Of a stretch of DNA of 64,000 nt, positions 14,384 to 44,820 are shown in pieces (within the stretch, counting starts at the first letter, position 1; every line of letters starts with the position of its first letter). The notes under the pieces are model-generated. The model did no database searches. It was given only the letters and a program-made list of their open reading frames with translations, and was not told the origin of the DNA. Both the position numbers and the translations under genes were made by a program. The stretch comes from Candidatus Omnitrophota bacterium (GTDB lineage: Bacteria; Omnitrophota; Gorgyraeia; Gygaellales; Profunditerraquicolaceae). The stretch covers positions 78,523 through 142,522 of the forward strand of contig JBEKSD010000002.1 of NCBI GenBank assembly GCA_049517335.1. The letters are read 5' to 3'.

Positions 14384-14459
14384 TAGGGACGGTTCTCAAG
14401 GCGAAGCTAAACTGTCCCCTAAAGGGGACAGTTTAAGATTAAGTTGAGAACCGTCCCTA
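14384..14459 (+). terminator. Nested double hairpin after ppdK: a 16-bp outer stem encloses a 12-bp inner hairpin
   Basis: TAGGGACGGTTCTCAA...TTGAGAACCGTCCCTA outer arms; AAACTGTCCCC/GGGGACAGTTT inner arms; lies between the ppdK stop and the sigma gene start. Confidence 0.5.
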
Positions 14460-23592: not shown

Positions 23593-23628
23593 AAACCGGG
23601 GTCGGAATTAATTCCGACCCCGGTTTTT
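23593..23628. terminator. Perfect 28-bp palindrome flanked by A3/T5 (bidirectional terminator-like); founding copy of a palindromic element family
   Basis: AAACCGGGGTCGGAATTAATTCCGACCCCGGTTTTT immediately after a stop codon. Confidence 0.65.
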
Positions 23629-28573: not shown

Positions 28574-28713
28574 TTGTCAAGAAAAAAAACAAGCACCTTA
28601 AGTTTTTGTTCAGCGCAGTCTTTTGCACAAAGCGCAAAGGAAAAGTGCCTTATTATAGTAACATGAAAATATTTGAGAGTATTTCGATAAAATGGTAGAC
28701 GGAATGCAGCGTC

Positions 28714-29184
28714 CTAAAATCCTTTTCTATTTACACTTGTTACAGTTATATCGCCACTCACACGCATCCCTCTTGATTCTTTTCCTGTAGCATTAGAACT
28801 GTCCGCTTGCTTCTCCTTAATAACAATCACAAAAGACTCTTCATTTATTGGAGGCTTACCTTTTTCCCACGGACGCACATATTTAAAAAAGATAGTCGTC
28901 TTCCCTGCCTTAAGCGCTTCGATAGTCCACAGTTGTTTTCCACCTGAACCGATAAGTTTAGGGTTGTTTCCTGAATATGAAGACCTTATCAATTCCAACA
29001 TATCTTTATCTAATGACCTTGCAAATTGCCATCTGTAACCGGTAGTCGCATTTGATTCCAGCGTAATCGTGAAACTCTGGCCAGCATAGGTTTCAATAAC
29101 TTTAACTTGTTTTTGCTCTTGCGCAAAACAAATCGAAGAAAAAAATAACAAAATAAATACGGATTGAATAAGCTTTTTCATCAT
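28714..29184 (-). CDS. Secreted chagasin-family (I42) cysteine-protease inhibitor
   Basis: 156 aa; signal peptide; NATTGYRWQ motif matches the chagasin NPTTG(Y/F)xW loop. Confidence 0.65.
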   Translation of the reverse strand: MMKKLIQSVFILLFFSSICFAQEQKQVKVIETYAGQSFTITLESNATTGYRWQFARSLDKDMLELIRSSYSGNNPKLIGSGGKQLWTIEALKAGKTTIFFKYVRPWEKGKPPINEESFVIVIKEKQADSSNATGKESRGMRVSGDITVTSVNRKGF

Positions 29185-29190
29185 TTATGG

Positions 29191-29217
29191 GGTCAGGCCC
29201 GAAGTTCGGGTCTGACC
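29191..29217. repeat. GC-rich hairpin GGTCAGGCCCGAAGTTCGGGTCTGACC directly upstream of the chagasin-like start; outer arms related to the palindromic element family
   Basis: 11-13 bp stem; no U-tract on either strand. Confidence 0.35.
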
Positions 29218-29333
29218 ACTGTTTTGGGTAAATTACCTATTTCCTAATTATATCACTTCCATTTCAAAATAGTAAATGATTTAGAAAAAAGGGTGGCTGA
29301 ACGATTACTAAACACATCTATTTTCAAATTCAC

Positions 29334-29484
29334 GAGGTGACTCCCTTGAGGACGGGCAGTAATATTGCACAAGGGGACGCCCTCTCTGTAAACAGCTATT
29401 GGCAAATTTGAGAGGTATTCCCGTTAAGGACCCCAGAAAGGAGTCACCATAGAAAGACTCTCTGTAAACAGGTAGGGCAAAATT
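29334..29484. repeat. Two tandem diverged copies (A 29334-29409, B 29410-29484) of an intergenic repeat family (GAGGTGACTCCC...CTCTCTGTAAACAG.TA..GGCAAA)
   Basis: A and B share their 3-prime halves; A carries GGTGACTCC and B its reverse complement GGAGTCACC; a third copy lies at 35079-35131. Confidence 0.5.
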
Positions 29485-29501
29485 AGAGCGGACAAACTTT
29501 C

Positions 29502-30167
29502 TTAAATACATAAAGATGAATCTTCACGAGAAACAATCCTACCATCCTTAAGATAAACCACCCTCGCTGCCTGCGAGCCGAGCTTAGGGTTATGCGTAGT
29601 CAATATAACTGTAAGGTTTTCTTTCTTATTTAAATCAGCCAGTAGGCCAAAAATATCCTCACCGCTTTTTGTATCCAGGTTTCCCGTTGGCTCATCGGCA
29701 AAAAGGATCTTTGGCGATGTAACCAAAGCACGGGCAATAGCCACCCTCTGTTTCTCTCCTCCGGAAAGCTCTTTTGGCAAATGATTTATACGTTTTCCTA
29801 GTCCGACCCGTTCCAATAATTCTCTCGCCTGCCTAGCCTGCTGCGACATGCGCGCAAAAAGCAAAGGCAGTTGCACGTTTTCAATCGCTGTAAGCGTAGG
29901 GATAAGCAAAAAATCCTGAAACACAAATCCTAAATACTTACGGCGCATTGAAACAAGCACATTCTCCTTTGCCTTCGAAACATCTTTACCAAGTATACTT
30001 AAACTCCCACTTGTAATTGTAGTTAAGCAACCAAGGCTATCAAGCAACGTAGTTTTACCTGATCCGGATGGCCCCATAATAGCGATAAAATCTCCTGCCG
30101 CTACCTCAAGATTAACATCACGCACAGCATAAATCTCTTCGGCCAAGAGTTTATAAACTTTAGTCAA
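29502..30167 (-). CDS. ABC transporter ATP-binding protein (MacB/LolD-type)
   Basis: 221 aa; Walker A GPSGSGKTT, signature LSGGEKQRVAIARAL, Walker B ILFADEPT. Confidence 0.85.
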   Translation of the reverse strand: MTKVYKLLAEEIYAVRDVNLEVAAGDFIAIMGPSGSGKTTLLDSLGCLTTITSGSLSILGKDVSKAKENVLVSMRRKYLGFVFQDFLLIPTLTAIENVQLPLLFARMSQQARQARELLERVGLGKRINHLPKELSGGEKQRVAIARALVTSPKILFADEPTGNLDTKSGEDIFGLLADLNKKENLTVILTTHNPKLGSQAARVVYLKDGRIVSREDSSLCI

Positions 30168-30199
30168 TTTATTTGCTTAAATTATATATTCTTTCATAA

Positions 30200-31387
30200 C
30201 TATTCTCCCGCGCGAATCGCTTCTACTGGTTTCATTAGCGATGCCCGCAATGCCGGATATGCCCCGGCCATCAAACCCATAGCCACCGTGGCAAAAAAGG
30301 CTATCAAAAGAAACTCTGGTTTAATCAATACGAGTTTCCCTGACGGCGCATAAGGGAGGGTGTGACGGATGATTTTTTCTACAAGCGCGCTTCCTATAGA
30401 GGCAAGCATCACTCCAAATAACCCGCCGAATACGCAGATAAGCACTGTCTCTGCCCAGATTACCTTAAAGATATCTAGAGCCGAAGCTCCTAAAGCCTTC
30501 ATTACTCCTATTTCACGTGTACGTTCAAAAACCGACATCAGTATTGTGTTGGTTACGCCGATAACCGCAATAAAAATAGCGATTAATGCTATGGAATTAG
30601 CCATTGCCCGCGCCGAAGCCACGAGGTTGAGAATCGTTCCGCGTACCTGGGCAAGGCTGACCACCTGAATCCCCGGTTCGTTGTAAAGCGATTCTTCGAA
30701 CTCACCTATCTGCTGAATATTCTTAAGCTTTATACCAATACCAGTGAGTTTACCTGGTAAATTAAATATACGCTGTGCAGTAGCAAGCGGGATAAAAATA
30801 ACTCCGTCATCTTGTGTTCCGGTACGCTCAAATATCCCTTTCACGGTAAGCACCTTATTAATTCCGGAAACAAAAATCTTATCACCTATTAATCTCTGCT
30901 CTAATTCCGCGGCTTCATAGCCCATGATTGTCTCATCTGCATCGGAACCGGAAAACCATCCGCCGGATTTAAACTTCGACCAAGGTTTTAACTCAATGTA
31001 AGATTTATCTATGCCCATGTAAAGAGCAAATGATCCACGGTTCTGCGGACCGCCTTCCTGATTATAAACACTGGAAACCAATTGGGGCGTGATCTTGTCT
31101 ATGTGCTTGTCTTGTATTATACGCTTATAAACCGCATCATCCATATAGCGTAGCCCGCCGCCACCTTGAAGCATCAGCGTTGCCGCCTCATAGGGACAAC
31201 CCTTAGCCGTAACTAAAAGATGGTAGCCCAATTTATCAATATCCTTATTTAACCCGTTTTGATAACCTGCATCAAAACCAAAAAGACTAACTAATACCGC
31301 AACTGCCACTGCCACGCCTCCTATGGTAAGAGCAGTGCGAATTTTCTTACGTTTCAGGTTCTTATACGCTAAAGAGATGAATTTCAT
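30200..31387 (-). CDS. ABC transporter permease, FtsX/MacB family
   Basis: 395 aa; N-terminal TM helix, large periplasmic domain, C-terminal FtsX 3-TM bundle. Confidence 0.8.
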   Translation of the reverse strand: MKFISLAYKNLKRKKIRTALTIGGVAVAVAVLVSLFGFDAGYQNGLNKDIDKLGYHLLVTAKGCPYEAATLMLQGGGGLRYMDDAVYKRIIQDKHIDKITPQLVSSVYNQEGGPQNRGSFALYMGIDKSYIELKPWSKFKSGGWFSGSDADETIMGYEAAELEQRLIGDKIFVSGINKVLTVKGIFERTGTQDDGVIFIPLATAQRIFNLPGKLTGIGIKLKNIQQIGEFEESLYNEPGIQVVSLAQVRGTILNLVASARAMANSIALIAIFIAVIGVTNTILMSVFERTREIGVMKALGASALDIFKVIWAETVLICVFGGLFGVMLASIGSALVEKIIRHTLPYAPSGKLVLIKPEFLLIAFFATVAMGLMAGAYPALRASLMKPVEAIRAGE

Positions 31388-31758
31388 TTAAGCTCAACTC
31401 CTTCTCCAATAACGGAAATTTGATTATCTTCTTTTTTTACCTTGCCCTCTGCCACTACCTTGCTACCGACTGCCTGCGGTATGGCTATTTCAGAAGGATG
31501 CAAGTCAACTAATATAACTCCCGTAGCATCCTTAAGCATGAACCATCCTCCGGCAGGGCATTCCTGGACAATTTTTCCCTCTAGCCGTACGGACTTCCCG
31601 GAGAACTGATCTGATTGCTTTAAAATTTCTGTCACGGTAGTAACTTTTGCTTGACTAAGCTGGCTGCCGTAAATTCCTGGCTTCTTAGCGCAGCCGTAGA
31701 GAACAAACCATATGGAAATACCCGAAATCAACGTAAAAACTAATAATATTTTCTTCAT
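31384..31758 (-). CDS. Lipoprotein with BOF/YgiW-like OB-fold domain
   Basis: 124 aa; lipobox LYGC; pattern TVTEILKQSDQFSGKSVRLEGKIV...FMLKDATGVILVDL...GSKVVAEGKV typical of YgiW/BOF OB folds. Confidence 0.45.
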   Translation of the reverse strand: MKKILLVFTLISGISIWFVLYGCAKKPGIYGSQLSQAKVTTVTEILKQSDQFSGKSVRLEGKIVQECPAGGWFMLKDATGVILVDLHPSEIAIPQAVGSKVVAEGKVKKEDNQISVIGEGVELK

Positions 31759-31770
31759 CTAAACTCTCCT

Positions 31771-32361
31771 TTATTTCTGCGAAAGTAGCAATAGATCCAA
31801 AAGAATCATATTTTTTCTCAATCCCCGTAACGTCGCCCGGAAATCCTCAGGGCTGTTTGAGCTTGGGTCTTTTACAGAAACATTCCCCTTGATAAAATCG
31901 TCCAGCGTCAGGCCTTTGAACTGTGAAGTAAATTTAGTATTCATAAACTTGCCTGCTTCTGGAGAAGACATCTTTTGGTAATAGAAATCGACTATCTTAC
32001 CGTTTAAATCAGTGGCCATAATAAGCTGCATCCCCCCGTATTTGCCTTTTTGGTTTACCCCATGGACATAGCCGATTGGATCTTTACCCTTAAGCACCGT
32101 GTAAAAAACATAAGGAACATCCAAATTCTCATATACCGGCTCAAGTTTGTCATTCAGTTTATCTTCCACTTCTTTCTTTAATGTTTCTCCACCTTTTTCC
32201 TTAATAGTAACAAAGGTGGTTTTATAGCCGGTGGACTCTGGAAAGATCCTCGCTATGTCTCGGTCAGGGTCATTAAGGCTACAGCCCACCGCAGCCCAGG
32301 CAGAGCTGACGAATAAAAACAGCACGGCAAGAACCATTAGAGTCTTAAATATTTTTTTCAT
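31771..32361 (-). CDS. secreted periplasmic protein (weak FMN_bind-like pattern)
   Basis: Start set at the internal MKKIFKTL signal peptide; no firm motif. Confidence 0.4.
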   Translation of the reverse strand: MKKIFKTLMVLAVLFLFVSSAWAAVGCSLNDPDRDIARIFPESTGYKTTFVTIKEKGGETLKKEVEDKLNDKLEPVYENLDVPYVFYTVLKGKDPIGYVHGVNQKGKYGGMQLIMATDLNGKIVDFYYQKMSSPEAGKFMNTKFTSQFKGLTLDDFIKGNVSVKDPSSNSPEDFRATLRGLRKNMILLDLLLLSQK

Positions 32362-32362
32362 C

Positions 32363-33376
32363 TTAGTCCCCCAAGAAATAGAATTGCACCACAAATCTAT
32401 CTTCCGGCTTTGTATTCATCATACCAAAATCATGCAAGTATGCCGCGCTCAGCTTTGTCGACTGGCTTAGCCTGTATGTTGCACCAAGAGTAAGTGTAGG
32501 CTCATCACTAGATTTTATATGCATATCATTAATCCATGATTTATACTGCAACTCAAACTCTATGTTCTGATGCGCAGGAAGCGTGTAAACTATCTCAGTA
32601 AGATAGCCCAATACCTCATTTTTATCATCGCGGCCATAAGCACATTCTCCCTTAAAAAGAAACGGTCCGTAAAGATACTGTCCGTCTAAACCTACTCTAT
32701 TCTTATTCATCGCATCGGGTGATAAAAGCTTATCTTCAGGAAAAGTACGCATGCCTTCGCTCTCTAGGGTGCGGCCAGATAATAATGAGAGCCCAGCTTG
32801 TAAATTTCTACCTTGGGGTGTTCCTATTCTTAACGTTGCCAGATAGCTGTCGTCCTGGCGGCGTATGCTCATGCCTGATCCTGTTTGCAGACTGGCTTCG
32901 TAATCAAACTTTGGAAATGATCCGCGCATCTGCACACCCCAGTCTTTGTTAAATCCAATATCCTGGTCAGCTAAAGTCTGCAGTAACGTGCTGTGCGTAT
33001 CTACCACCGGCTCAAGGCCAAACGAGGGGGTAAAATGCCCCCCTCTTATTTTAAGATACTGCGAGATTTTATACTCGAGCCAGGCATTATGAATCTCTGC
33101 TCCCCCTGCCTGGTGGGAATTCTCCCTGCTATCATAGGCAGCGCGCATCTGCAGGTCAGCGGTAAGAAAATCTCCGTAATCTCCGGAAAACTTACGGTAT
33201 AATTCAAAACCTGCGGAGCTGTTCATTGTCCCGTTTTTGTCAATCCAACCATCCCGACTGGAATAACCTCCTATAAGGTTTAGTTCCTTATAGAAAAACC
33301 CTTCAGAATCTGCAAAAGCCCAAGATACAGGAAATAAAGCTATTAAGGCTAAGACTATTAATGATTTATAGGGCAT
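32363..33376 (-). CDS. putative outer-membrane beta-barrel protein
   Basis: 337 aa; signal peptide ...SWAFA; alternating aromatic beta-strand pattern; C-terminal YFLGD. Confidence 0.45.
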   Translation of the reverse strand: MPYKSLIVLALIALFPVSWAFADSEGFFYKELNLIGGYSSRDGWIDKNGTMNSSAGFELYRKFSGDYGDFLTADLQMRAAYDSRENSHQAGGAEIHNAWLEYKISQYLKIRGGHFTPSFGLEPVVDTHSTLLQTLADQDIGFNKDWGVQMRGSFPKFDYEASLQTGSGMSIRRQDDSYLATLRIGTPQGRNLQAGLSLLSGRTLESEGMRTFPEDKLLSPDAMNKNRVGLDGQYLYGPFLFKGECAYGRDDKNEVLGYLTEIVYTLPAHQNIEFELQYKSWINDMHIKSSDEPTLTLGATYRLSQSTKLSAAYLHDFGMMNTKPEDRFVVQFYFLGD

Positions 33377-33384
33377 AAATCTTT

Positions 33385-33666
33385 TTACAATTTCCTGAAC
33401 TGTCGGATAAGCTGCAGTATCTCCTCAATCTTTTTTGCGCGCTCAACTCCTGACTTGCCCCGTATAGCTTCGCTGACGCAACCGTTAAAGTGTCTCTCCA
33501 AAACTTTATCTTCTACAGAAACAAGTGCTTTCATTACCGCATGCGTCTGATTGAGGATATCCACGCAATACTTGCGCTCTTCAATCATTCTCTGTATTCC
33601 CCGCACCTGGCCCTCTATCCTCTTTAATGCCACGATGCTCTCTGTGTGATTCGGATATTCCTTCAT
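33385..33666 (-). CDS. CsoR/RcnR/FrmR-family metal-sensing transcriptional repressor (DUF156)
   Basis: About 93 aa from the internal start MKEYPNH; RIEGQVRGIQRMIEE..YCVDIL.Q..AV..AL signature; C-terminal HFNGC. Confidence 0.7.
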   Translation of the reverse strand: MKEYPNHTESIVALKRIEGQVRGIQRMIEERKYCVDILNQTHAVMKALVSVEDKVLERHFNGCVSEAIRGKSGVERAKKIEEILQLIRQFRKL

Positions 33667-33694
33667 AATGCTTCCCTCCTTTATCGTTGTATAT

Positions 33695-33724
33695 AGCATA
33701 CAATAGGGAGGTATAGTATGTCAA
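33695..33724 (-). promoter_or_regulatory. candidate sigma-70 promoter of the csoR-like gene with an embedded ATAC-N-GGGAGG-TAT candidate operator
   Basis: Minus strand reads TTGACAtactatacctccctattgTATGCT, 18-nt spacer; the spacer holds a G/C tract flanked by ATAC/GTAT, reminiscent of CsoR/RcnR sites. Confidence 0.4.
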
Positions 33725-33738
33725 GTATTTTATTAAGA

Positions 33739-33779
33739 CCTGCCCGTGCAAATATTAGCTATAATTACATCCTACGGTA
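33739..33779. repeat. Copy D1 of a 41-nt duplicated segment (core TGCAAATATTAG.TATAATTA.ATC)
   Basis: About 80% identical over 41 nt to 34985-35025; lies between the MFS stop and the csoR promoter. Confidence 0.5.
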
Positions 33780-33785
33780 TTAATT

Positions 33786-34967
33786 CTAATCAGAATATGC
33801 TTTTTGTTTACTGATAGCGCTAATAAATATTGGTAAAGCGGCAATCTGTAAGACTACTGAAAAGATAATCAGGGCAGGCAGTGATTTAACATATAGAATT
33901 CCCATAATAGCGCTCCCTAAAAACCAGGCAATTCCAAATCCGGTATCAAATACACCGAATGCTGTGCTTCTCTTATCTCTGGAAATCACATTAGCGAGCG
34001 TTGCTTTAAGAAGAGATTCTTGCGCACCCAAGCCAATACCCCAGAGTATCATGCCGATAATAATCAAAAAGAACTTGCCCAAGAAGACAAACGGAGCAAA
34101 GAATGCCCCGAGGAAAAAGGCAACTAGCATCACCTTTGGGCCTATTTTGTCTAATAAGCGGCCGAAAATAAGAGAACTGATTCCCGCCATGGCCATAGCT
34201 ACCGCATAAAGAATCGGAATCCAATGCATGGGAACATTTTTTGTTTTATCAAAATGAAATGCGATTAAAGCAAAATCTGCGAATCCCGCTCCAATCAAGG
34301 CTCCACCTGACAGATAAAGCCAGTAAACCTTTGTTAATCCTTTGGTTTCTAAGCCTACAGCTTCTTTTTTATCTAAATCCTGAGGCTTAGGAAAAAACAA
34401 TCTTGCAGCTACAAGCATTACTATACACAATAGTGCTGATATCAAAAGAACGCCATATCCGTATTTATAACTATTTTTTATAAATAACACCCAAGCCACA
34501 ATTAAAGGACCTATTGTTGCACCAAACTGATCCATGAACTCATTAAGCCCGAATACCCAGCCGATACCCATTTCTTTGCCAGCGAAGGAAAGCATGGTCT
34601 CTACCGCTGGTTTCCTGATAGCTCTTCCTGTGCGCTCTAGGATTATCAACACGCAAGCCACGGGCCAATTACCTGCTAAGGCCAAGGCAGGCACGGCAAG
34701 CATATTAATTGCATAACCAACAAAGGCAAAAATCCAATATTTGTGAGTTTTATCGGCAAAAAATCCTGCTATGGAGCGTAGCGCGTAACCGAGTAATTCT
34801 CCAAGACCAGCTACAAATCCCACTACAACGGCACTAGCGCCTAAACTGGATAAAAATGCTCCATTAATACTTCTTCCTCCTTCATAGGTAAAGTCTGCAA
34901 ATAAATTTACAATGCCTATAATCAGCACAAATTCAAATGCAAGTTGAGCAATATTCTTTTTATTCAT
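33786..34967 (-). CDS. MFS transporter
   Basis: About 393 aa from MNKKNIAQ; 12 predicted TM helices. The track start at 34997 falls inside duplicated element D2, where copy D1 reads ACG instead of ATG. Confidence 0.75.
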   Translation of the reverse strand: MNKKNIAQLAFEFVLIIGIVNLFADFTYEGGRSINGAFLSSLGASAVVVGFVAGLGELLGYALRSIAGFFADKTHKYWIFAFVGYAINMLAVPALALAGNWPVACVLIILERTGRAIRKPAVETMLSFAGKEMGIGWVFGLNEFMDQFGATIGPLIVAWVLFIKNSYKYGYGVLLISALLCIVMLVAARLFFPKPQDLDKKEAVGLETKGLTKVYWLYLSGGALIGAGFADFALIAFHFDKTKNVPMHWIPILYAVAMAMAGISSLIFGRLLDKIGPKVMLVAFFLGAFFAPFVFLGKFFLIIIGMILWGIGLGAQESLLKATLANVISRDKRSTAFGVFDTGFGIAWFLGSAIMGILYVKSLPALIIFSVVLQIAALPIFISAISKQKAYSD

Positions 34968-34984
34968 AATTTTTATTATTAAAT

Positions 34985-35025
34985 CCTGTCCATGCAAATA
35001 TTAGATATAATTATATCTTGTAGTA
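34985..35025. repeat. Copy D2 of the 41-nt duplicated segment, immediately upstream of the MFS gene
   Basis: See D1; contains TATAAT-like and TTGCAT-like hexamers on the minus strand. Confidence 0.5.
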
Positions 35026-35078
35026 AGAGATAGTTCAAGATAATCTGATGCCTTTTTTTAGACTTGTCTGAAATTTAA

Positions 35079-35131
35079 GAGGTGACTCCCGTAAGGACGC
35101 CCAGAAATACGGCGCGACAGAAAGACTCTCT
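35079..35131. repeat. Copy C of the GAGGTGACTCCC...AGAAAGACTCTCT intergenic repeat family
   Basis: Shares GAGGTGACTCCCGTAAGGACGCCCAGAAA with copy A and AGAAAGACTCTCT with copy B; lies upstream of the MFS gene (minus). Confidence 0.5.
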
Positions 35132-35216
35132 ATATATAAGCTTTTATAGTTTATATTTAACTCACTCAACACCTGTCTAACCTTCTCCCTCGAATCTCTA
35201 CAGTTAAATTCCCTCT

Positions 35217-36353
35217 CTAAAACCTAACATATTTCTCCGCTTTCTTAATCATCTTAGTTTGCCTGCCTAAGTCTTTGAGAGAGTGAAGCTTTGCTCCATT
35301 TTCCCGCAACGCAAGTATCCGCTCAACCATCACCTGCCCTAAACCGGGAACGCGAAGCAGGTGGTATTTATCAGCATTATTGATATTCACGGGGAAAAAC
35401 TCCGGGTGCAACCTCGCCCACATCTCTTTTGGGTCAAGGCTAAGGGATAGATTGCCGTCTGCCTCAAGAGGAATTTCATCACCTAAAAAGCCGTATTTAC
35501 GGATAAGCCAGTCCGCCTGATAGAGACGGTGCTCGCGCGTTAAAAGGTCGCTGTTATTGACGCTCGATTGTTCACCGGGCAGTTCAGGAGAGCCTGCGCC
35601 GCGCTGGTAAGCGCTAAAATAGATTCGGCTTAAGCCTAATTCCTTATATAATTTCCAAGAGTAGCTGAGAATCTCCTTGTCTGTTTCTTCTGCAGCACCC
35701 ACTACAAACTGGGTAGTATGTTTAACTCCTGCGTAGTAAGAGCCTTTTGCCGTAAGGCGGCTAATGAGCTGTATCGGACGAATGATATCGCGAAGATAAT
35801 TTTTGGTAGTACTTAGATGCCTGAAATTATTTTCACCAGCAGTTTCAATATTTAACGATACAGCGCTTGCCAAGGCAAGGCTTGAGCGAATAGCCGCATC
35901 AGATGCGCCGGGAATAATTTTTAAATGAATGTAACCCCTGAACTGCTTCCTGCGCAAATTAAGCGCCACGCGGTTAATACGCTCCATAGTAGCATCAGGG
36001 CTGTTGCTTACTGCGCTGCTTAAAAAAAGGCCGCTTACCCTGCAGGTTTTGTAATAGGAAAGAAAGGTACTGGTTAACTCCTCAGGGCTCAAGGAACAGC
36101 GCTGGGCGTCTTTCCCAACTCTGAGTGGACAGTATTTACAGTTATTGACGCACTCATTAGAAAGCAAGGTCTTAAAAAGATACATGTATCCGCCGTTAGG
36201 AAGGGTAACCGGGTATATCCATTTATTATCTTTTGAGCGCTTGCGGTGCTCATCTTCTCGGGTTGCGCAGGCACAGGCAAGATCGTATTGTGAATCCTGC
36301 GATAAAATCGTAAGCTTTTCGGTAGTATCAAGACTTCTCTTAATTAATGCCAT
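35217..36353 (-). CDS. putative DNA modification/repair radical SAM protein (TIGR03916-like) with C-terminal HhH
   Basis: 378 aa; CVNNCKYCPLR radical-SAM cluster motif; C-terminal HhH LLRVPGLGQVMVERIL. Confidence 0.7.
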   Translation of the reverse strand: MALIKRSLDTTEKLTILSQDSQYDLACACATREDEHRKRSKDNKWIYPVTLPNGGYMYLFKTLLSNECVNNCKYCPLRVGKDAQRCSLSPEELTSTFLSYYKTCRVSGLFLSSAVSNSPDATMERINRVALNLRRKQFRGYIHLKIIPGASDAAIRSSLALASAVSLNIETAGENNFRHLSTTKNYLRDIIRPIQLISRLTAKGSYYAGVKHTTQFVVGAAEETDKEILSYSWKLYKELGLSRIYFSAYQRGAGSPELPGEQSSVNNSDLLTREHRLYQADWLIRKYGFLGDEIPLEADGNLSLSLDPKEMWARLHPEFFPVNINNADKYHLLRVPGLGQVMVERILALRENGAKLHSLKDLGRQTKMIKKAEKYVRF

Positions 36354-44052: not shown

Positions 44053-44820
44053 TTATTCTACTGCTTCTATAGAAACAATTTCAATAATGGGGTATTTCCC
44101 TTGGTAGCCGCTGAGTTTTCCGGTGACTTTTACTTTATTATAATTAATAGCGTCCAAACTTTTTTTATTACCCTTAAGAAGGTAAGTTTTGTCTAGGGAG
44201 ACGAGCTTATGGGTGGCTTGACGGCCGAATATCCTGCCGTAAGGCTGAATGATCCCTGTTATCGCGACTAAATCCGGTGAGGGCAGATCCAAAACCGGGG
44301 TAGGAATTAATTCCGGTCCCGGTTTTGACTCCGGTTTTTGCGCCGGCTTTACAAACTTCTTATTTACATAACCGAAGCTGTTGCGAATGGGCTCAATTTG
44401 AAACCAACCATTGGCATCCCCTAAAACATTTACAATCTCATCTTTATTAACCTTCCCTAAGATTTGCGAGTTCTCAGAAGGCTTAAGCCTGACATTAATC
44501 CTGTCTTTAGTGGCTTTAGCACTGCTACAGCTGGGTTCAAGCGGAAGACACTCAAATAAAGACTTTTTTACGAAAGAAGGGGCGTTTTTAGGCAGGCGTA
44601 TCCTATACCAGTCATATAATTCAGCACTTACCTCAACTGTATCATGGCTCTTTAATACGCAAATTACTTCGGAGGAGACCGTGGTATCGGCCCTGACATT
44701 AATGTTGTCAGAAGATATTTCCCCGTTAAATTTCCGGAATTCCTGCGCGAATGTAGTTGTGGCTGACAAAACCGCCACTGTCAACAGGACGAATACTATT
44801 CTAGGCAAAAAACAGCGCAT
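44053..44820 (-). CDS. secreted protein with two bacterial SH3 (SH3b) domains
   Basis: 255 aa; signal peptide; two INVR....(D)WYRI / GWFQI SH3b-like units joined by a Pro-rich linker. Confidence 0.6.
   Translation of the reverse strand: MRCFLPRIVFVLLTVAVLSATTTFAQEFRKFNGEISSDNINVRADTTVSSEVICVLKSHDTVEVSAELYDWYRIRLPKNAPSFVKKSLFECLPLEPSCSSAKATKDRINVRLKPSENSQILGKVNKDEIVNVLGDANGWFQIEPIRNSFGYVNKKFVKPAQKPESKPGPELIPTPVLDLPSPDLVAITGIIQPYGRIFGRQATHKLVSLDKTYLLKGNKKSLDAINYNKVKVTGKLSGYQGKYPIIEIVSIEAVE
44291..44326. repeat. Copy P2 of the palindromic element, in-frame inside the SH3 gene (encodes linker SKPGPELIPTPVL)
   Basis: AAAACCGGGGTAGGAATTAATTCCGGTCCCGGTTTT; 36 nt, 12 codons, imperfect palindrome; compare 23593-23628. 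Confidence 0.5.

Follow-up and report, generated by a model that had tools for sequence, protein, structure and literature searches.

Small modular repeats in intergenic spacers of Candidatus Omnitrophota: a probable new family of BOX/BIME-like mosaic elements

We examined a 64,000-nt stretch of DNA from a Candidatus Omnitrophota bacterium (contig JBEKSD010000002.1, positions 78,523 to 142,522; hereafter, the window), in which three related intergenic units of about 76 nt lie 69 to 135 nt upstream of the start codons of two genes, one encoding a chagasin-like protein and the other an MFS transporter. We found that the units belong to a multicopy family, and we consider it probable (about 60%) that they are small interspersed mosaic repeats of a new, BOX- and BIME-like family in Omnitrophota. 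This reading is best supported by the recurrence of the units in unrelated contexts, their multiple copies, their modular tandem build, their turnover at orthologous loci, their fixed polarity, and their location outside the predicted leaders. According to it, the units would be repeats at the level of DNA, maintained and spreading where the intergenic spacer is under the least constraint, and any effect on the chagasin-like gene or on the MFS/csoR operon would be generic to the repeat rather than specific to a ligand or to CsoR.

The window units belong to a multicopy family

The data consisted of the window and 31 genuine loci from fragments of metagenome-assembled genomes (MAGs) and from metagenome contigs, 217 kb in total; the loci carry labels such as L033, and extra arrays on the same contigs are included in the counts. 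Arrays were counted with an nhmmer profile of the unit (E < 1e-3). In the window, this profile delimited a tandem pair (29319-29473) and a single unit (35066-35138), and it detected no fourth unit in the 64 kb. The features of the window are as follows.

29319-29396, + strand: unit 1 of the tandem array, A-type, GAGGTGACTCCC..GGGCAGTAATATTGCACAAGGGGACGCCCTCTCT (nhmmer E = 2.6e-16)
29395-29473, + strand: unit 2 of the tandem array, B-type variant, with 5′ arm GGTATTCCC and 3′ arm GGAGTCACC (nhmmer E = 8.1e-15)
35066-35138, + strand: solitary unit, C-type, GAGGTGACTCCCGTAAGGACGCCCAGAAATACGGCGCGACAGAAAGACTCTCT (nhmmer E = 8.9e-21)
29336-29344, + strand: 5′ arm of a long-range inverted repeat, GGTGACTCC, in unit 1 (direct reading)
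29440-29448, + strand: 3′ arm of the inverted repeat, GGAGTCACC, in unit 2, a perfect complement of 29336-29344 (direct reading)
29458-29491, + strand: junction block running into the beginning of another, truncated unit, CTCTCTGTAAACAGGTAGGGCAAAATTAGAGCGG (79% identical direct repeat of 29382-29415)

An initial annotation, made from the letters of the window, had reported three related intergenic copies and an inverted repeat between the first two of them. Both observations held: the copies, with the strings quoted for them, were recovered by a repeat search and by the profile, whose unit boundaries are slightly broader, and GGTGACTCC and GGAGTCACC are exact reverse complements. Each of two strings occurs exactly twice in the window, GAGGTGACTCCC at 29334 and 35079 and AGAAAGACTCTCT at 29451 and 35119. 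The repeat search returned the three pairwise similarities as families D8, D12, and D17, namely, 29419-29466 against 35087-35134 (73% over 48 nt), 29326-29364 against 35071-35109 (82% over 39 nt), and 29382-29415 against 29458-29491 (79% over 34 nt). The truncated junction remnant at 29458-29491 abuts the stop codon of an ABC ATPase gene (29502).

Because the units recur in four Omnitrophota MAGs and about 27 metagenome contigs, the similarity among the window copies is above chance. The A-type body GGGCAGTAATATT..CAAGGGGAC of unit 1 was present in 22 units at other loci. Unit 2 aligned with the B-type units of L005, L008, L010, L013, L020, L027, and L031; its GGTATT(T)CC variant was also found in L023, and the family counterpart of its 3′ arm is GGGGCTCACC or GGGGTCACC. 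The solitary unit differed from the C-type units of L003, L028, and L036 at only 1 to 3 of 58 positions.

Units are built from a constant block and alternative modules

The arrays run head-to-tail with a period of 76 to 82 nt and contain one to three units of about 76 to 78 nt. Within each unit, a conserved block, CTATTGGTAAATTTGAGAGGTGACTCCCGTRAGGACG, precedes one of several module types that are likewise conserved:

A-type: GGGCAGTAATATTCGACAAGGGGACGCCCTCTCC, body GGGCAGTAATATT..CAAGGGGAC; includes window unit 1
B-type: CCCAGAAGGGGCTCACCATAAAAACACTCTCT, whose 3′ arm GGGGCTCACC pairs with the 5′ arm GGTGACTCCC; window unit 2 is a variant
C-type: CCCAGAAATACGGCGCGGCAGAAAGACTCTCT, body CCCAGAAATACGGCGCG; includes the solitary window unit
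D-type: B-type with two extra hairpins (44 nt) inserted in the loop

An E type is also present, and the module bodies are themselves conserved among genomes. The usual order is an A module first, its outer end often degenerate, followed by B, C, or D. The best conserved stretch spans the junction between units and the 5′ block (CTCTCYGNANACAG-CTATTGGTAAATTT-GAGAGGTGACTCCCGTRAGGACG), and a TGnTAAATT-like box is conserved at the junctions. The + strand of the units is purine-rich (0.55-0.58), with a GC content of 0.45 as compared to 0.42 for the window.

Further conserved hairpin modules often follow the units, the commonest being S1, GGCTATTGACCG..CGGTCAATAGCC. On the element strand, S1 was preceded by 5 to 7 A within 8 nt in all eight loci, corresponding to a U-run on the gene strand, while a run of at least 5 U followed it in just two of the eight. 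Because of this asymmetry, S1 looks like a terminator-like hairpin for the upstream gene. It is a SPRITE-like companion repeat family in its own right: we observed S1 (AAAAAAGGCTATTGACCG-loop-CGGTCAATAGCC) beside the arrays of L006, L009, L012, L013, L015, L017/L024, L025, L031, L032, and L033, often followed by a conserved block, CTCTAAACTCTCCNATTATGCGAGGAGAATGATATTACTGGGGTC. Downstream of the arrays in L008, L014, L020, L022, L025, L030, and L033 lie hairpin-rich intergenic tracts that are 300 to 500 nt long. Among their conserved modules are hairpins of the form TCCCGCAGAAAGCGGGACACC-stem-ATCCGATA-stem-GGTGC, as well as ATACCGGGGTAAAGCTGGTCT and TTAAATGCACCGCGCCTGTCGGCGCTCCCACATCTCCC. Rfam recognizes none of these modules, and the tracts may represent other repeat families or one large structured RNA.

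The family recurs between unrelated genes with a fixed polarity

A strict pattern search of MAGs found matches in four genomes, all of them Candidatus Omnitrophota. A looser pattern with 19 specified bases matched 33 metagenome contigs, six of which were chance matches in GC-rich coding DNA. The pattern had no match in viral contigs and thus gave no sign of a phage origin. The family, previously uncurated, is so far found only in Candidatus Omnitrophota MAGs and unlabeled metagenome contigs. We counted 40 arrays in the 217 kb: the window and L002, L004, L012, and L013 have two each, and the 14.6-kb L021 has four. Six arrays (L007, L010, L015, L026, L032, and L036) are cut by a contig end or lie within 50 nt of one, that of L036 at the end of a 1.87-Mb contig; such positions are expected if short-read assemblies break at multicopy repeats and indirectly favor a high copy number per genome.

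Apart from a few orthologous pairs and the accessory hairpins, no similarity was detectable between the flanks of the arrays. The neighboring genes are unrelated and encode, among others, LexA, Fur, PadR, CsoR, DUF134, a KdpD-like histidine kinase, a PstS-like protein, an M42 peptidase, a GH130-like protein, an AAA ATPase, an MFS transporter, and an I42 inhibitor. We considered LexA as a conserved flanking gene; it adjoins the array in L003 and is near those of the window, and this association is not general. Units were about 97% identical between genomes whose LexA proteins are, by eye, only about half identical. Look-ups of the chagasin-like and CsoR-like proteins of the window returned only contigs of the same organism, hence no empty site for a strain comparison.

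All arrays on any one contig share the same orientation. Based on crude open reading frame (ORF) calls, for which the longest ORFs of at least 90 aa were taken, the gene on the 5′ side was on the opposite strand in 26 of the 31 arrays with a callable neighbor and that on the 3′ side in 24 of 29; among the 21 arrays with both neighbors called, 15 lie antisense between two co-directional genes. The placement upstream of opposite-strand genes that had been noticed in the window therefore generalizes to the family; the functions proposed for the units in the initial annotation, however, are mostly unsupported.

The transcription signals around the arrays place the units more precisely (all promoter positions are predictions of the sigma-70 type). 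In the window, a promoter of the MFS gene (35038-35010, minus strand) and one of the chagasin-like gene (29276-29247, minus strand) are both predicted between the units and the respective start codon. In L033, TTGACA-17-TATAAT lies about 50 nt past the unit, on the csoR side, and in L012, TTGACA-17-TATATT directly adjoins the first unit. A terminator-like hairpin with a U-run on the gene strand stands next to the array in at least eight loci. In most loci, the units thus lie in an interval flanked by the terminator-like hairpin of one gene and the predicted promoter of the next, a position that argues against a leader or riboswitch and also against a general role as a 3′ untranslated region.

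Modules turn over at orthologous loci

Loci with shared flanks differ in their modules. To [A] and hairpins in L004 correspond [A'][B][E] in L020, and to [A][A][B] in L010 correspond [A'][D] and hairpins in L017/L024; L009 likewise differs from L022 in its module set, and the window from L033. The last locus comes from a close relative of the window, and the 4259 nt that extend from the ABC ATPase gene as far as the csoR promoter are 89.4% identical in the two. Their alignment begins at 29483, within the truncated junction remnant and about 10 to 25 nt past the last full unit, and the solitary C unit of the window matches L033 only as an isolated 72-nt block (87.5% identity) with non-homologous DNA on both sides. 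Both window arrays thus lie at synteny breakpoints. Compared to its orthologous unit in L033, the window C unit shows about eight differences, as against the 1 to 3 that separate it from the distant L003, L028, and L036. That distant copies are closer than the ortholog fits homogenization or spread within a repeat family, and not the simple vertical inheritance of a functional site present in one copy.

In L021, an insertion sequence (IS) of the rve (DDE) type occurs twice at the same position (AATATT) of an A-type unit:

L021, 10282-10883 and 13350-13951: rve IS copies, one of them 5′-truncated

The IS bodies are about 96% identical, and the flanking unit sequences are, by eye, about 84% identical. 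Independent insertions into two units would explain these identities. The shared insertion position suggests that the IS targets the repeat. IS elements are known to target REP sequences (PMC1525189).

If the units are indeed DNA-level repeats, arrays would grow and shrink through unequal recombination or slippage between units, and the units would act as hot spots of recombination and insertion. Their fixed polarity could result from strand-specific mobilization or from selection against the sense orientation, since the latter would aim a strong SD (Shine-Dalgarno)-like GAGGUGA followed by GTG, ATG, or TTG, as well as the TGnTAAATT extended −10-like box, into the downstream gene.

A further direct repeat of 42 nt (33730-33771 and 34976-35017, 86% identical) flanks the MFS transporter gene (33786-34997) of the window. 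The −10 box and leader of the MFS gene fall within one copy, and the second copy is found immediately past the MFS stop codon, upstream of the csoR promoter. L033 has no MFS gene, and its repeat unit lies directly upstream of csoR. These observations suggest that the MFS gene was inserted, or was lost in L033, by recombination at the 42-nt repeat.

Tests for RNA structure give a mixed picture

We searched Rfam 15 with the window and 20 related loci at the gathering threshold and with positions 28600-35800 of the window at E values up to 10. The window yielded two tRNAs only, the relaxed search nothing relevant, and the related loci tRNAs and one unrelated c-di-AMP riboswitch (ydaO/yuaA type, 82 bits; 4819-4971 of L022, a contig that also has an array). 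Detection of the latter indicates that Rfam models work on these genomes. The Rfam comparison suggested in the initial annotation thus returned no match for the units.

Structure was evaluated by folding single units against shuffles, by alifold consensus energies, by pairing with slid partners, and by covariation against 500 shuffles. On neither strand did the stability of single units stand out from that of shuffles; z lay between −0.17 and +0.86 (+) and between −0.45 and −0.97 (−). The B-type helices P1 and P2 (arms GGTGACTCCC/GGGGCTCACC and GAGAG/CTCTC) were paired in 87.5% of cells, as compared to 36 to 48% with slid partners. Their covariation was not significant (0.085 versus 0.082 in shuffles, with 156 of 500 reaching the score), and one pair was changed on both sides. 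The search in relatives that had been called for did recover homologs, and their covariation lent no significant support to a structured RNA. Window unit 2 and the third unit of L023 have an altered 5′ arm (GGTATTCCC and GGTATTTCC, respectively), so that their 3′ arm can pair only with the preceding unit. The predicted long-range stem between units 1 and 2 is a family feature of the B and D module types. Consensus energies were lower on the gene strand than on the element strand for both B-type (−15.6 versus −9.8) and C-type (−14.3 versus −11.9) modules. The asymmetry between G-U and A-C pairs was mixed: variants in L027, L007, and L025 favor the + strand, and those in L005, L013, L022, and S1 favor the minus strand.

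Weighing of alternative explanations

If the element (+) strand were transcribed, the units could encode a multicopy "sibling" small RNA. The junction TGGTAAATT would serve as an extended −10 box with a start near GAGAGG, and an invariant 5′ end, GAGGUGACUCCCGURAGGACG, with SD-like and A(N)GGA motifs would act in trans, e.g., as a sponge for CsrA or for the 30S anti-SD, or by base pairing. Several features fit such an RNA: the junction and 5′ block are the best conserved part of the unit, NAAATT precedes GAGAGG by 3 to 4 nt even in solitary units, the + strand is purine-rich and slightly higher in GC than the window, the complementary B-type arms (10 nt) enclose the loop into which the D-type hairpins are inserted, a hairpin with a U-run is found on the element strand in L015 and L028, and some G-U wobbles favor this strand (L027, and GGUG in L007 and L025). 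We nevertheless consider it rather unlikely. The junctions have no −35 box, the window has no promoter call on the + strand, and the adjacent S1 is a terminator for the opposite strand in eight of eight loci, with a U-run on the element strand in just two. Single-unit folds on the + strand are at shuffle level, consensus energies are lower on the other strand, covariation is not significant, and module content differs at orthologous loci. A consistent head-on orientation to both neighbors would also be unusual for an expressed RNA gene. AGGAC occurs in every unit; in several accessory hairpin loops, GGA alternates with CCG (AUCGGAU/AUCCGAU) and is therefore not conserved, and a motif scan of the 217 kb, a weak test, revealed no CsrA-like ORF. 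We kept the CsrA sponge only as part of this alternative. We also tried sigma-54 and −35 motifs at the junction, and none fits by eye. A small RNA had also been among the proposals of the initial annotation and may yet be correct; if the element strand is expressed after all, the family would represent a new widespread RNA class. In a more specific and unlikely version, the units would be TGnTAAATT-driven genes for an abundant, multicopy structured small RNA, so far seen in Omnitrophota alone, whose 5′ segment would mimic an SD together with CsrA-type GGA sites and titrate ribosomes or an RNA-binding protein, or would pair via GGUGACUCCC with a conserved target. If true, this RNA would regulate gene expression globally at the post-transcriptional level in a phylum that is uncultured and host-dependent.

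Transcription of the opposite strand would instead make the reverse complement of the units a REP/BIME- or ERIC-like RNA element at the end of the upstream gene or between cistrons, with CU-rich, anti-SD-like hairpins (GGGAGUCACCUCUC) that stabilize, process, or attenuate the transcript. The reverse complement is indeed co-directional with both neighbors in most loci, consensus folds are more stable on this strand, and several helix variants are G-U here and A-C on the other strand (L005, L013, L022, and the change from GGTCAA to GATCAA in S1). Moreover, the truncated unit and the last full unit of the window follow the ABC ATPase stop codon by only about 10 and 28 nt, respectively, with no terminator call between. 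However, a hairpin and U-run terminator separates the upstream gene from the units in at least eight loci, so that only read-through would bring these units into a transcript. Folding of single units shows no significant gain in stability over shuffles on this strand either, covariation is not significant, and the units themselves have no terminator-like U-run. This alternative therefore appears quite improbable.

The initial annotation had further proposed a riboswitch-like or otherwise structured cis-regulatory leader of the chagasin-like and MFS transporter genes, or operators of the neighboring CsoR-like repressor. The distance of the units from both start codons, the nearby csoR-family gene (33385-33699), and the family-wide recurrence of a place upstream of opposite-strand genes agree with this. 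The evidence against it is stronger, and we regard it as very improbable. No unit matched Rfam, the genes that the units precede have no function in common and are antisense to them, predicted promoters lie between element and gene in the window, L033, and L012, covariation is not significant, and an expression platform is absent. As for CsoR, the units have no CsoR-type dyad, and most family copies are not near any csoR gene. A CsoR-type pseudo-palindrome is present, but elsewhere: ATACCTCCCTATTGTAT at about 33698-33714 of the window and ATACCCCCCTATGGTAT in L033, in both cases within the spacer of the csoR promoter, which separates its −35 box from its −10 box. This promoter (TTGACA...TATGCT) lies at about 33695-33724 on the minus strand of the window and at about 4945-4975 of L033. 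The pseudo-palindrome presumably resembles known CsoR operators. It is likely to be the CsoR operator, which would imply autoregulation of the csoR-porin-ABC operon.

The interspersed-repeat reading has difficulties of its own. The strict pattern found a single match per MAG in each of the four MAGs, and the polarity counts depend on the crude ORF calls described above. A non-exhaustive search identified no terminal inverted repeats (TIRs), target-site duplications (TSDs), or cognate transposase, so that mobility is only inferred. The types and order of the modules are conserved, which is not required of a purely selfish element; the B-type inverted repeat, with the D-type hairpins in its loop, resembles an architecture at the RNA level; and the identity of about 97% between units of distant genomes might just as well result from strong purifying selection, be it on a functional RNA or on a protein-binding site. 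These points weigh against a DNA-level repeat.

Some better-known classes of repeat do not accommodate the units. In a non-exhaustive search, only GAGAG/CTCTC (5 to 6 bp) is common to the unit ends and no TSD is visible at solitary units, which does not match miniature inverted-repeat transposable elements; the sole IS seen, the rve element of L021, inserted into units and does not share their ends. We rejected the REP/REPIN-RAYT class, as the units are about 76 nt long and arranged directly head-to-tail and the palindrome CTGTATACAG is not kept, reading CCGCACACAG in A-type modules. A CRISPR array was rejected as well: the variable parts are a few types conserved between genomes, and the flanks that we read contain no cas genes. 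As to a small ORF, GTG, ATG, or TTG follows the SD-like GAGGTGA by 5 nt in about half of the units, the rest having GTA, ATA, GCG, or CTA; module types differ by indels of 1 and 44 nt, L023 has an in-frame stop, and third codon positions account, by eye, for about 4 of 13 variable sites in C-type modules, which is no enrichment. We rejected this reading too.

Other hairpins and repeats in the window

A strong 12-bp hairpin, GGTCAGGCCCGAAGTTCGGGTCTGACC, lies at 29191-29217 in the predicted leader of the chagasin-like gene and ends 7 nt before its start codon. It has a T-rich tail on the + strand and scores as a terminator there. Its possible roles include that of a structure in the leader and that of a terminator acting on antisense transcripts. 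A palindromic repeat, AAACCGGGGTCGGAATTAATTCCGACCCCGGTTTT, occurs at 23593-23627 and 44292-44326 (91% identical) and looks like a bidirectional terminator. The window also holds a nearly perfect inverted repeat of 37 nt at 14384-14459.

Comparison with known systems

Work on small interspersed repeats has dealt almost exclusively with cultured Proteobacteria, Firmicutes, and Neisseria. The present family, which is modular and strongly polar, comes from an uncultured nanobacterial phylum and provides a new case in which to follow spread, fixed orientation, and operon boundaries. Its recognition removes a false riboswitch or operator lead and provides a name and a profile for a repeat that any annotation of an Omnitrophota genome will encounter. 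The repeat also appears to break metagenome assemblies, as several contigs end inside arrays.

Tandem sibling small-RNA genes, such as the NsiR1 repeats of Nostoc, and GGA-rich protein sponges (CsrB/RsmZ) are analogues for an expressed element. As in these systems, the repeats are tandem and about 60 to 80 nt long with a promoter-like box before each, and A(N)GGA and SD-like motifs are repeated on one strand. In contrast to them, the Omnitrophota units have no terminator per unit, and the adjoining terminator faces the opposite way; module content varies at orthologous loci, GGA in the accessory loops is not conserved, and Rfam holds no match.

REP and BIME elements, including REPIN-RAYT systems, are known from Enterobacteria and Pseudomonas (PMC2817692, PMC3333891, PMC3116915). 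Similarly to these, the units are extragenic repeats that form mosaics between genes, often near terminators, and are tied to rearrangement breakpoints. REPs are also insertion targets of IS elements (PMC1525189), comparable to the two rve insertions at one A-type site in L021. However, REPs are imperfect palindromes of 20 to 40 nt in alternating orientation, whereas the Omnitrophota units are direct, mostly non-palindromic, and about 76 nt long. We noticed no RAYT (Y1 transposase) gene near the units, although no systematic search for RAYT genes was made.

The BOX elements of Streptococcus pneumoniae and Streptococcus suis consist of boxA, a variable number of tandem boxB modules, and boxC, co-occur with the terminator-like SPRITE, and show a coding-strand bias (PMC3049150). 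The Omnitrophota units differ from BOX in phylum, share no sequence similarity with it, and have a polarity antisense to the flanking genes. They measure 76 to 78 nt, carry alternative bodies on one junction block instead of distinct A and C caps, and no TIR-like ends or candidate mobilizing IS were found for them. The resemblance is nonetheless broad. Both are composite, modular small repeats with a variable number of tandem internal modules; both are intergenic and clustered with other repeat families, with an orientation that follows a coding bias; and in both, the module number varies between strains or orthologous loci and a stem-loop is predicted if the element is transcribed. Last, a separate terminator-like repeat occurs nearby in each case, S1 in Omnitrophota and SPRITE in Streptococcus.

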